Part shown: piece by piece, positions 20,485 to 22,638 of the stretch | How the letters are laid out: each line of letters begins with the position of its first letter | Position numbering within the stretch: the stretch's first letter is position 1 | Source of the DNA: Escherichia coli | GTDB taxonomy: Bacteria > Pseudomonadota > Gammaproteobacteria > Enterobacterales > Enterobacteriaceae | NCBI RefSeq assembly: GCF_046105845.1 | Contig: NZ_CP151004.1 | Strand: one strand, 5' to 3' | Length of the DNA: 64,000 bases | Position numbers and translations under genes: made by a program | Notes under the pieces: generated by a model | Seen by the model: only the letters and a program-made list of their open reading frames with translations | The model's database searches: none | What the model was told of the DNA's origin: nothing

Positions 20485-22638
20485 ATGCTAAGTCCTTTGC
20501 TCAAACGCTATACCTGGAACAGCGCCTGGCTGTATTACGCGCGTATTTTTATTGCGCTTTGTGGAACCACAGCGTTTCCGTGGTGGCTGGGTGATGTAAA
20601 ACTGACGATTCCGCTGACGCTGGGGATGGTGGCAGCGGCGCTGACCGATCTCGATGACCGGCTGGCGGGACGTTTGCGTAACCTCATCATTACGCTGTTC
20701 TGCTTTTTTATCGCCTCGGCCTCAGTAGAATTGCTGTTTCCCTGGCCCTGGCTATTTGCAATTGGTTTAACGCTCTCTACCAGCGGCTTCATTTTGCTCG
20801 GCGGTCTGGGTCAACGCTATGCAACAATTGCCTTCGGTGCGTTACTGATCGCCATTTACACTATGTTGGGGACGTCACTGTATGAGCACTGGTATCAGCA
20901 GCCGATGTATCTGCTGGCCGGTGCCGTCTGGTACAACGTCCTGACACTTATTGGTCATCTACTGTTCCCGGTCCGCCCGCTGCAGGACAACCTGGCGCGT
21001 TGCTATGAACAACTGGCGCGTTACCTTGAGCTCAAGTCGCGCATGTTTGATCCTGATATTGAAGATGAAAGCCAGGCACCGCTGTACGATTTGGCTCTCG
21101 CCAACGGTCAGCTGATGGCGACATTGAATCAGACGAAACTCTCGCTGCTGACCCGCTTACGTGGCGATCGTGGTCAACGGGGAACGCGTCGCACGCTGCA
21201 TTATTACTTTGTCGCACAGGATATTCACGAGCGTGCCAGCTCTTCTCATATTCAGTATCAAACATTGCGTGAACATTTTCGCCACAGCGACGTGCTGTTC
21301 CGTTTTCAGCGGCTGATGTCGATGCAGGGCCAGGCGTGCCAGCAACTGTCACGCTGTATTTTGCTGCGTCAGCCTTATCAACATGATCCGCATTTTGAGC
21401 GCGCTTTTACGCATATTGATGCTGCGCTGGAGCGGATGCGCGATAACGGCGCGCCTGCCGATTTACTCAAAACACTGGGTTTTTTGCTGAACAATTTACG
21501 CGCCATTGATGCCCAACTGGCAACAATTGAATCAGAACAGGCCCAGGCACTGCCCCATAATAATGACGAAAATGAGCTCGCTGATGACAGCCCGCACGGA
21601 TTGAGTGATATCTGGCTGCGTCTTAGCCGTCACTTCACGCCGGAATCCGCCCTCTTCCGTCATGCGGTAAGAATGTCGCTGGTGTTGTGCTTCGGCTACG
21701 CCATCATTCAGATAACCGGAATGCATCACGGGTATTGGATCTTGCTGACAAGTTTGTTTGTCTGCCAGCCAAACTATAACGCCACTCGCCACCGCCTGAA
21801 GTTAAGGATTATTGGGACGCTGGTAGGTATCGCGATTGGCATTCCTGTGCTGTGGTTTGTGCCGTCACTGGAAGGGCAGCTGGTGCTACTGGTTATTACC
21901 GGCGTGCTCTTTTTTGCCTTCCGTAACGTGCAATATGCCCATGCAACGATGTTCATCACACTTTTGGTGCTACTGTGTTTTAACTTGCTGGGTGAAGGTT
22001 TTGAAGTGGCGTTACCTCGCGTAATCGATACGCTGATTGGTTGTGCCATTGCGTGGGCGGCAGTGAGCTACATCTGGCCTGACTGGAAGTTTCGCAATCT
22101 GCCGCGAATGCTCGAACGCGCCACAGAGGCCAACTGCCGGTATCTCGATGCCATACTGGAGCAATACCATCAGGGGCGTGATAACCGTCTGGCGTATCGT
22201 ATTGCCCGCCGCGATGCACACAACCGTGATGCTGAACTGGCGTCGGTGGTATCAAATATGTCCAGCGAGCCGAACGTTACCCCGCAAATTCGCGAGGCCG
22301 CGTTTCGGTTGCTGTGCCTTAACCATACGTTTACCAGCTATATCTCAGCCCTCGGTGCTCACCGGGAGCAGTTAACTAATCCTGAAATTCTGGCGTTTCT
22401 TGATGACGCAGTTTGCTATGTTGATGACGCGCTACATCATCAACCTGCTGATGAAGAACGCGTCAATCAGGCATTAGCTGGCCTGAAACAGCGAATGCAG
22501 CAACTTGAACCGCGGGCAGACAGCAAAGAACCTCTGGTCGTACAACAAGTCGGGTTATTGATTGCATTACTGCCAGAGATTGGTCGTCTGCAACGCCAGA
22601 TTACTCAAGTTCCGCAGGAAACTCCTGTTTCGGCGTAA
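20485..22638 (+). CDS. yccS: Inner membrane protein YccS (YccS/YhfK family, function unknown)
   Basis: About 717-aa polytopic membrane protein; start taken at MLSPLLKRYTWN (alternative ATG at 20476); 3' end overlaps sxy. Confidence 0.9.
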   Translation: MLSPLLKRYTWNSAWLYYARIFIALCGTTAFPWWLGDVKLTIPLTLGMVAAALTDLDDRLAGRLRNLIITLFCFFIASASVELLFPWPWLFAIGLTLSTSGFILLGGLGQRYATIAFGALLIAIYTMLGTSLYEHWYQQPMYLLAGAVWYNVLTLIGHLLFPVRPLQDNLARCYEQLARYLELKSRMFDPDIEDESQAPLYDLALANGQLMATLNQTKLSLLTRLRGDRGQRGTRRTLHYYFVAQDIHERASSSHIQYQTLREHFRHSDVLFRFQRLMSMQGQACQQLSRCILLRQPYQHDPHFERAFTHIDAALERMRDNGAPADLLKTLGFLLNNLRAIDAQLATIESEQAQALPHNNDENELADDSPHGLSDIWLRLSRHFTPESALFRHAVRMSLVLCFGYAIIQITGMHHGYWILLTSLFVCQPNYNATRHRLKLRIIGTLVGIAIGIPVLWFVPSLEGQLVLLVITGVLFFAFRNVQYAHATMFITLLVLLCFNLLGEGFEVALPRVIDTLIGCAIAWAAVSYIWPDWKFRNLPRMLERATEANCRYLDAILEQYHQGRDNRLAYRIARRDAHNRDAELASVVSNMSSEPNVTPQIREAAFRLLCLNHTFTSYISALGAHREQLTNPEILAFLDDAVCYVDDALHHQPADEERVNQALAGLKQRMQQLEPRADSKEPLVVQQVGLLIALLPEIGRLQRQITQVPQETPVSA

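Follow-up and report, generated by a model that had tools for sequence, protein, structure and literature searches.

Two convergent genes of Escherichia coli, yccS and sxy, meet tail to tail with no intergenic DNA. The junction raises three questions: how such an overlap of coding regions arises, where the two transcripts end, and whether the overlap acts on sxy, the competence regulator. The analysis covers a 64-kb stretch of E. coli DNA, called the window; positions are those of the window unless stated otherwise (Table 1). With fairly good confidence, the junction is explained as an ordinary tail-to-tail overlap of two real genes, with 3'-end signals placed inside the neighbouring gene and a yccFS transcript terminated by Rho.

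Table 1. Features of the yccS-sxy junction in window coordinates.
Feature	Position	Strand	Source or remark
yccF CDS	20020..20466	+	RefSeq annotation; first gene of the yccF-yccS operon
yccS CDS, 720-aa ORF, FUSC-like inner-membrane protein	20476..22638	+	ORF list, RefSeq, Pfam
yccS stop codon, TAA	22636..22638	+	
sxy (tfoX) CDS, 209 aa, CRP-S co-activator	22601..23230	-	ORF list, RefSeq, Pfam
sxy stop codon	22601..22603	-	
38-bp yccS/sxy overlap, coding on both strands	22601..22638		ORF, RefSeq and MG1655 coordinates
Inter-core segment, 46 nt (YccS ...RLQRQI to Sxy ...ELAEW)	22603..22648		Tail sequences; both stop codons drift inside
Conserved 10-bp stem-loop, GCTCCTGGCG-n6-CGCCGGGAGC	22660..22685	+	Covariation and recoding tests; inside sxy codons 182-191
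C-rich, G-poor stretch, candidate Rho-utilisation region	22699..22896	+ (yccS-sense)	Composition scan
p19-captured dsRNA hot spot in yccS	22052..22074		Huang et al. 2020 supplement; sequences map exactly to the window

Coordinates, phase and annotation of the overlap

The 38-bp overlap, claimed earlier in a sequence-only reading of this DNA, is confirmed by the ORF list, by RefSeq and by the annotation of K-12 MG1655, where sxy occupies 1021138..1021767 (+) and yccS 1021730..1023883 (-), again 38 bp in common. RefSeq/PGAP gives identical overlap coordinates for a 100%-identical strain and annotates the overlap likewise in a strain 91.7% identical over the 651-nt query. The region is found in 5425 of 5426 complete E. 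coli genomes. Related genomes share the arrangement, which rules out an annotation artefact confined to one strain.

The two opposite-strand ORFs have their 3' nucleotides in common. Both are real genes by Pfam domains, homologues and kept synteny. FUSC-like, FUSC_2 and FUSC are matched in YccS, TfoX_N (residues 14-106) and TfoX_C (116-194) in Sxy, and 394 Sxy homologues are found at E<=1e-10. In each gene the overlap comprises the stop codon, 11 sense codons and 2 nt of the adjoining codon; the earlier wording, that the last 12 codons are common to both, is correct when the stop is included. An earlier stop in either gene had been named as evidence against the overlap and was looked for. There is no earlier in-frame stop in yccS or sxy, and the annotated stop is the first for each. 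Were the present stops lost, the next in-frame stop would start at 22705 for yccS and lie at 22463..22465 for sxy.

By coordinates, codon position 1 of one gene is opposite position 1 of the other, and position 3 is opposite position 2. Because of this phase, hardly any site of the overlap is synonymous in both frames.

The overlap is known and ordinary: the reference annotation contains it, and the overlap of the transcripts has been catalogued before. The one new detail on this junction is a stem-loop.

A conserved stem-loop inside sxy and the probable end of yccFS transcripts

The stem-loop starts 21 nt past the yccS stop, and the E. coli stem reaches 22654..22689. It is GC-rich; the 14-codon window holding it folds at -22.5 kcal/mol. 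In the alignment of relatives 95% of cells are paired, and two pairs show compensatory change. The majority fraction at synonymous third positions is 0.88-0.96 in the stem versus 0.60 elsewhere (p=5e-4). Ranked against synonymous recodings, the yccS-sense fold lies in the most stable 5% in 23 of the 25 loci and in the 1% tail in 22. A scan of the whole of sxy finds excess structure in this window only (z=-2.8 on the yccS-sense strand). The stem-loop is missing in Yokenella and Leclercia. A hidden plus-strand ORF at 22562..22801 was considered as the source of the codon conservation and rejected, being interrupted by stops in most species. A small hairpin in the overlap itself, CAGGAAACTCCTG at 22616..22628, is E. 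coli-specific; it is disrupted in Escherichia sp. L003, in E. albertii and in every other genus, and was rejected as a functional element.

The sxy side is different. Its transcripts are without a comparable conserved structure, and the synonymous-recoding scan detects no counterpart in the yccS 3' coding region. A minus-strand hairpin at about 22529..22580 with a U-rich tail was rejected as a sxy terminator, there being no excess structure in the last 100 yccS codons of 14 species (lowest mean z -1.1).

The conserved stem is not followed by the 7-8 nt U-rich tract of an intrinsic terminator; its tail is GCAGCUUCAUGAAU and is no more U-rich in relatives. A canonical terminator scan gives no match in 22410..23230, and its total number of matches equals the shuffle expectation. 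Rfam search of 20000..24300 returns two chance-level matches far from the junction, neither of them the stem-loop. Like the bidirectional intrinsic terminators (SEnd-seq; Wang et al. 2022 bioRxiv), this is a single stem-loop at a convergent boundary and could position polymerase collisions. Unlike them, it is without flanking A- or U-tracts (flanks CCCATTCTGCAA and GCAGCTTCATG), and it cannot productively terminate sxy transcripts because it lies inside sxy, 16 codons before the sxy stop.

The sequence-only reading held that neither gene has room for its own terminator. One part stands: intergenic DNA is lacking, and neither the overlap nor its immediate flanks hold a canonical intrinsic terminator. 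The other part goes too far, as 3' signals can sit in the neighbour's coding sequence, here the stem-loop and the C-rich stretch behind it. With no intergenic DNA available, the 3'-end signals would therefore be inside the neighbouring gene.

Rho-dependent 3' ends are located just past stable stem-loops without U-tracts, with rut sites directly downstream, also within downstream coding regions (Dar & Sorek 2018). yccS has a stable stem-loop without a U-tract after its stop codon, followed directly by a C-rich, G-poor region. In this region the 78-nt windows starting at 22699..22819 have C 0.28-0.40, G 0.14-0.21 and C/G 1.5-2.8. Most close relatives have C>G peaks (C/G 1.9-3.4) 100-170 nt from the sxy stop. 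The whole antisense of sxy has C 0.27 and G 0.21, and by itself the stretch counts for little because RNA antisense to coding sequence is generally richer in C than in G. In sequence anatomy the proposed yccFS end resembles the ends of Dar and Sorek: a GC-rich stem-loop without a U-tract, then a C>G region, inside the coding sequence of the downstream gene. It differs from them in that the hairpin sequence has to code for the conserved Sxy peptide A-L-P-x-x-R-R-Q-E-L as well, and this is visible as fixed rare codon choices, e.g. CTC for Leu and GAG for Glu.

The stem-loop probably protects the 3' end of a yccFS transcript that Rho terminates. The ribosome would halt at 22638, and the transcript would run on antisense into sxy and fold the stem-loop. 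Rho would end it on the C-rich RNA at about 22700..22900, and exonucleases would trim it back to the stem-loop. Rho would probably stop the sxy transcripts only after they have covered several hundred nucleotides of yccS in antisense. Among the mapped 3' ends in the supplements of Adams 2021 and SMRT-Cappable-seq there is no yccS or sxy entry, so both the hairpin role and the Rho dependence are read from anatomy. On this reading the junction illustrates how codon choice can build a 3'-end hairpin into the coding sequence of a neighbour.

The stem-loop might instead serve sxy, acting in the sxy mRNA by ribosome slowing or stability near the 3' end, or as a protein-bound inverted repeat in the DNA, unrelated to yccFS termination. 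It is indeed a near-perfect inverted repeat, and the sxy-sense fold also beats synonymous recodings (in 20 of the 25 loci at the 5% level and in 14 at the 1% level, mean z -2.2), but the yccS-sense signal given above is stronger and steadier. Only the plus strand accommodates a common U-G pair (columns 30-45) and other G-U pairs, although the bases involved are fixed by Pro and Gln codons. Translating ribosomes would open the stem in sxy mRNA, the stem-loop has no Rfam match, and its position 12-21 nt past the yccS stop, directly before the C>G region, fits a 3'-end element. A role in sxy is accordingly regarded as unlikely.

Transcript overlap and its bearing on sxy

Since the coding regions overlap, complete yccS and sxy mRNAs are complementary over at least 38 nt. 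As the sequence-only reading had it, transcription of one gene reads into the other, a complete mRNA of either having to span the neighbour's last codons. The strand-specific RNA-seq that it proposed as a check is available as published data and has substantial antisense signal over both genes. Wild-type sense/antisense values, in RPM, are 32.7/9.7 for sxy, 63.0/20.9 for yccS and 7807/30 for ompA. Overlap of the neighbouring transcripts in vivo, as in an excludon, is taken here from published data only. The yccF-yccS operon is named as converging with sxy by Conway 2014 (mBio), and published work counts sxy-yccS among 165 convergent "excludons". For MG1655 the pair stands in the core list of ExcludonFinder (NAR 2025, Table 1), seen in at least 50% of 58 transcriptomes.

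Double-stranded RNA captured by p19 adds two hot spots inside yccS. One is given in Table 1, about 530 nt beyond the sxy stop as sxy is read, and demonstrates antisense RNA over yccS. The second is at 21160-21182. The entries listed in the p19 table include no hot spot from sulA to position 1021518, which leaves sxy and the overlap without a listed one.

The spacer-less junction could be a selected convergent excludon, in which yccFS transcription represses sxy and vice versa, by RNA polymerase collision or RNase III cleavage, helping to silence the competence regulator. Convergent excludons (Conway 2014; ExcludonFinder) likewise have complementary 3' transcript ends, and sxy-yccS is itself on the core list; compared with them, it is documented for transcript overlap only. 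The listing says little, because 276 of 370 convergent E. coli operons (75%) overlap at their 3' ends (mean 286 nt), and transcript overlap is automatic where coding regions overlap. The antisense/sense ratio is about 30% for sxy and yccS alike, but sxy antisense reads do not increase in rnc mutants (9.7, 5.0 and 3.6 RPM), and the p19 hot spots listed leave sxy and the overlap free. The two genes stay almost without a spacer throughout Enterobacteriaceae and Erwiniaceae, while overlap length (-44 to +47) and sequence vary among relatives; this variation between genera argues against a sequence-specific device. For sxy no natural inducing condition is known according to PMC3330819; its established control is CRP/Sxy autoregulation. 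A selected device of this kind is considered distinctly unlikely.

The scope for antisense interference of yccS with sxy, proposed in the sequence-only reading, finds no support: nothing shows an effect. The regulatory effect of the overlap on sxy is unproven and probably small, if there is any. A fuller proposal would have the stem-loop in dual use, as part of TfoX_C and as the yccFS 3' end, with a yccFS mRNA at least about 90 nt antisense to sxy and an arrangement that measurably damps Sxy; it is very doubtful. An antisense link to sxy, if true, would add a layer to the question of why the competence regulon of E. coli stays silent; no such link is shown here.

Origin of the overlap and the junction in relatives

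Across about 30 Enterobacterales loci the junction varies between an overlap of 47 bp and a gap of 2 bp. Each of the 26 closer loci (Escherichia, Salmonella, Citrobacter, Enterobacter, Lelliottia, Leclercia, Yokenella, Intestinirhabdus) has an overlap of 4-47 bp. Of the five more distant loci with kept synteny, three have one as well: an Enterobacteriaceae bacterium (4 bp), Tatumella (26 bp) and Rosenbergiella (26 bp). One metagenome contig of a distant relative has a 2-nt gap between yccS and sxy. In Chimaeribacter (Yersiniaceae) the genes are separated by a spacer of 44 nt, which holds a GC hairpin and then CTTTC; the sxy stem-loop is absent where this spacer hairpin is present.

The core-to-core distance was determined by hand from tail sequences and overlap lengths in about ten closer loci. 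In most of them it is 46 nt; C. koseri has 40 and Yokenella 41. Across genera no part of the junction is less conserved than the inter-core segment, whose mean pairwise identity is 48% versus 68% for the flanking cores (13 species). The tails of YccS and Sxy both lie outside the Pfam domains, TfoX_C stopping at residue 194. The segment behaves as a translated spacer.

Random or shuffled 46-nt fillers give a coding overlap in 84-86% of simulations, and one of at least 38 bp in about 70%. The overlap is therefore unsurprising, since the cores are 46 bp apart and about 85% of random fillers overlap too. Both frames continue through the weakly constrained segment until each reaches a stop, and point mutation shifts the stop positions, giving the overlaps of 4 to 47 bp seen in related genera. 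The junction is a clean illustration of convergent overlap through stop drift in a short, weakly constrained inter-core segment. Other convergent overlapping pairs of bacterial genomes (for instance dnaQ-rnh and ilvA-ilvY, cited as overlapping transcription units by Conway 2014) are likewise two real genes with common 3' ends, whose overlap comes from frames running beyond a conserved core.

Within E. coli the picture is narrower. The 61 nt spanning the overlap are identical to the window in 5255 of the 5418 genomes holding the segment (97%), versus 2% and 23% for flank controls, and MG1655 and the window strain have zero differences across 22576..22711. This near-invariance shows some purifying constraint, apparent on short time scales. 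True dual coding under selection, with both C-terminal tails functional and the DNA constrained by both, would agree with that near-invariance and with a phase that gives no doubly synonymous sites, but is hardly credible against the low identity of the segment between genera, tails that fall outside the Pfam domains, Sxy ends that vary freely (...SLTT, ...SLTAG, ...TPEPVY, ...KQEFPAELE) and Escherichia locus L003, 98% identical overall, in which most of the few Sxy differences are in the tail (3 substitutions in the last ten residues).

Coding regions overlap in 4 of the 11 convergent gene pairs of the window: cspH/appA by 13 bp, tusE/yccX by 4 bp, ycbX/zapC by 4 bp and yccS/sxy by 38 bp. The last is the longest of the four and is otherwise undistinguished.

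Overlap of yccS and sxy

The convergent genes yccS (FUSC-like inner-membrane protein) and sxy (tfoX; competence regulator, CRP-S co-activator) share 38 bp of coding sequence, as a sequence-only reading had claimed and as the ORF listing, RefSeq/PGAP and the K-12 MG1655 annotation bear out. Within the shared part, each gene has its stop codon, 11 full sense codons and 2 nt of an adjoining codon. Local gene order is helD-yccF-yccS-sxy-sulA-ompA-matP. A 651-nt query (window 22300-22950) is 100% identical to the chromosome of E. coli strain 1190. In RefSeq/PGAP the 100%-identical strain carries the identical overlap, as does a strain with 91.7% identity over the query. 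In the MG1655 reference, sxy (1021138..1021767) and yccS (1021730..1023883) also overlap by 38 bp. Of 5426 complete E. coli genomes, 5425 contain the yccS-sxy region. The overlap is already known and has long stood in the reference annotation. The annotated yccS start differs (20476-20487): 720 aa from 20476 (MAFMLSPLL...) in PGAP, 717 aa from the second Met in gene calls of K-12 MG1655, Salmonella and E. fergusonii.

Conservation among relatives runs to ...LLPEIGRLQRQI in YccS and to ...RRQELAEW in Sxy, the latter also being the end of Pfam TfoX_C (residue 194). The two cores lie 46 nt apart in E. coli (22603..22648, the inter-core segment). When these 46 nt were replaced by shuffles of the real sequence, or by random sequence drawn at either local or uniform composition, the ORFs overlapped in 84-86% of trials, by at least 38 bp in about 70%. 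The overlap is the null expectation because the conserved cores are so near each other; it is not beyond chance given gene spacing. Coding overlap occurs in 4 of the 11 convergent pairs of the window, and yccS/sxy is a plain member of this class. Same-strand coding overlaps are present beside cspG, in a small-protein cluster: gnsA/ymcE (11 bp, 1339-1349) and ymcE/ymcF (26 bp, 1544-1569).

Features of the yccS/sxy junction, other convergent overlaps of the window, and distant loci (L032 in coordinates of its own locus)
Feature	Position	Strand	Extent	Remark
yccS	20476..22638	+		ORF listing
sxy	22601..23230	-		ORF listing
Coding sequence common to yccS and sxy	22601..22638	both	38 bp	
Stem-loop GCTCCTGGCG-n6-CGCCGGGAGC	22660..22685		10-bp stem	extended in E. 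coli to 22654..22689
C-rich, G-poor stretch	22699..22896	yccS-sense		directly 3' of hairpin; C/G up to 2.8
cspH/appA overlap	2441-2453		13 bp	absent from ExcludonFinder list
tusE/yccX overlap	14025-14028		4 bp	yccX-tusE in ExcludonFinder list
ycbX/zapC overlap	37886-37889		4 bp	zapC-ycbX in ExcludonFinder list
L028, Enterobacteriaceae bacterium ESL0689			4-bp overlap	
L029, Tatumella			26-bp overlap	
L031, Rosenbergiella			26-bp overlap	
L030, metagenome contig			2-nt gap	
L032, Chimaeribacter (Yersiniaceae)	4628-4671		44-nt spacer	separates sxy and yccS
L033, most distant locus looked up				sxy not adjoining yccS

Variation of the junction among relatives

The 26 closer loci were taken from a genome scan and from contigs encoding Sxy homologues. 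They represent Escherichia (coli, albertii, fergusonii, cryptic clades), Salmonella, about 10 Citrobacter species, Intestinirhabdus, Enterobacter, Lelliottia, Leclercia and Yokenella. Coding overlap is present in all 26, with lengths of 4, 11, 14, 20, 23, 32, 35, 38, 41, 44 and 47 bp. The core-to-core distance is 46 nt, as determined by hand from tail sequences and overlap lengths in about 10 closer loci; exceptions are C. koseri (40 nt, in-frame 6-nt deletion) and Yokenella (41 nt, 5-nt deletion with phase change). The length of inter-core DNA is therefore stable, and stop codons move inside the segment through point mutation. In Yokenella (L026), the inter-core deletion leaves a 4-bp overlap (locus positions 4618-4621) and a YccS shorter by about 10 residues; this genome also has a degraded version of the sxy-internal hairpin. 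Sxy of E. fergusonii (L025, 4001-4630) is 69% identical to that of E. coli, Sxy of E. albertii 90%; divergence in E. fergusonii is unusually fast for the genus, yet the overlap is still 38 bp. Sxy residues 76-167, with 99% identity to E. coli, are also encoded on a 276-bp, low-coverage contig (L023, NZ_VLXZ01000190.1) of an assembly labelled Alkalicoccobacillus porphyridii, where contamination by E. coli DNA is almost certain.

The distant set comprises Sxy relatives at 38-47% identity, with the same synteny in L028-L032. A GC-rich hairpin of 11 bp (GGGTAGCCGGC..GCCGGCTACCC) lies in the Chimaeribacter spacer, with CTTTC after it when read on the yccS-sense strand. This hairpin appears to be an ancestral or alternative way of ending yccS transcripts.

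Mean pairwise identity in 13 species is 48% for the inter-core segment, 68% for each 150-nt flanking core and 82% for the hairpin. Sxy tails vary freely in sequence and length (...SLTT, ...SLTAG, ...TPEPVY, ...KQEFPAELE). By this comparison, the shared codons are not constrained between genera. Dual coding under selection is very improbable, the lower identity of the segment than of its flanks and the free tails being the opposite of what it predicts. Within E. coli, 5255 of 5418 genomes match the window exactly over the 61 nt that span the overlap, compared with 102 of 5413 and 1238 of 5422 for two flank controls, by a crude measure that scores identity to a single strain. Comparison of MG1655 with the window strain gives 42 differing sites over yccS and sxy, none of them within 22576..22711. 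Codon position 3 of each gene lies opposite position 2 of the other, so almost no mutation in the overlap is silent in both proteins. From these observations we infer weak purifying selection that clears polymorphism on short time scales, amino-acid replacements still accruing in the long term.

Stem-loop inside sxy and transcript ends

The stem-loop, which came to light through comparative analysis and was beyond the reach of the sequence-only reading, occupies sxy codons 182-191 (A-L-P-x-x-R-R-Q-E-L) and begins 21 nt past the yccS stop. With this conserved element, the claim of the sequence-only reading that neither gene has space for its own terminator is unsupported. Pairing is kept in 95% of cells over 24 distinct sequences, with compensatory double changes at two pairs (Lelliottia, for example, has GAC/GTC in place of GGC/GCC). 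At the five synonymous third positions scored within the stem, majority-codon fractions are 0.88-0.96, compared with a mean of 0.60 at 90 other conserved-residue sxy codons (Mann-Whitney p=5e-4); among the codons fixed there are the rarely used CTC (Leu) and GAG (Glu). On the yccS-sense strand, 23 of 25 loci have a fold whose stability exceeds that of 95% or more of synonymous recodings, and in 22 of 25 it exceeds that of 99% or more; for the sxy-sense fold the numbers are 20 and 14 of 25. A whole-sxy scan in 14 species detects excess structure only at the stem-loop (mean z -2.8 yccS-sense, -2.2 sxy-sense), and none in the last 100 yccS codons. A hidden plus-strand ORF over the stem-loop was ruled out, the ORF not being conserved. 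The stem-loop is missing in Yokenella and Leclercia, and in distant relatives, including Chimaeribacter, whose hairpin sits in the spacer. Pairing, codon choice, and the stability and uniqueness of the fold are evidence that the structure itself is under selection. The conserved, codon-embedded stem-loop is the only new detail at the junction.

A simple scan of the junction detects no canonical intrinsic terminator, and Rfam gives no match there. The hairpin has no U-tract (tail GCAGCUUCAUG) and for this reason differs from an intrinsic terminator. It also differs from a SEnd-seq bidirectional terminator, because its position is within the sxy coding sequence, upstream of that gene's stop, and because it lacks A/U flanks. 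It resembles in anatomy the stem-loops of Dar & Sorek (2018), in which a precise steady-state 3' end directly follows a stable stem-loop without a U-tract, with a rut site just downstream; their cases include 3' ends within downstream coding regions. C>G peaks similar to the C-rich stretch of E. coli occur in most close relatives. By this likeness, the hairpin is most likely a Rho-dependent 3'-end stem-loop, a fresh example of a known element type. Ribosomes would halt at 22638, RNA polymerase going on antisense into sxy. Rho would load at about 22700..22900 and terminate transcription, and exonucleases would trim the RNA back to the stem. Steady-state yccFS mRNA (yccF-yccS operon) would then overlap sxy by about 90 nt. 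We infer the Rho and hairpin steps, as no mapped 3' ends for yccS or sxy were found in published Term-seq and long-read supplements. In the sxy direction, conserved structure is lacking and the first C>G region comes at about 22100..21950; sxy transcripts therefore probably extend several hundred nt antisense into yccS.

Antisense RNA and possible effect on sxy

Published wild-type sense/antisense values (RPM) are 32.7/9.7 for sxy, 63.0/20.9 for yccS, 17.0/0.5 for yccF and 7807/30 for ompA. RNase III dsRNA hot spots captured with p19 (Huang et al. 2020) map exactly within yccS (22052..22074, 21160..21182), and the first coincides with the first C>G-rich stretch of the minus strand. No hot spot among those listed in that table falls in sxy or the overlap. 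Antisense RNA at the yccS hot spots could come from sxy read-through or from an internal antisense promoter. The published RNA data are compatible with mutual read-through of both genes.

The interpretation of the sequence-only reading is partly supported. Obligatory overlap of the two transcripts is real, with 38 bp common to the coding sequences themselves. The regulatory implication for sxy is unsupported; rnc mutants show no increase in reads antisense to sxy. It is quite improbable that the arrangement measurably damps the competence regulator. Conway (2014) reports complementary 3' ends for 276 of 370 convergent operons, which overlap by 286 nt on average, and sxy-yccS is one of 165 convergent excludons (neighbouring convergent operons with complementary transcripts) of MG1655 in ExcludonFinder (2025). 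Since both cover such pairs, the idea of antisense interference is already in the literature at catalogue level; scope for it is not specific to yccS/sxy.

Elsewhere in the window, this strain has an insertion between ssuB and pepN, an IS1397 transposase of the IS3 family with programmed frameshifting (51375-52723).
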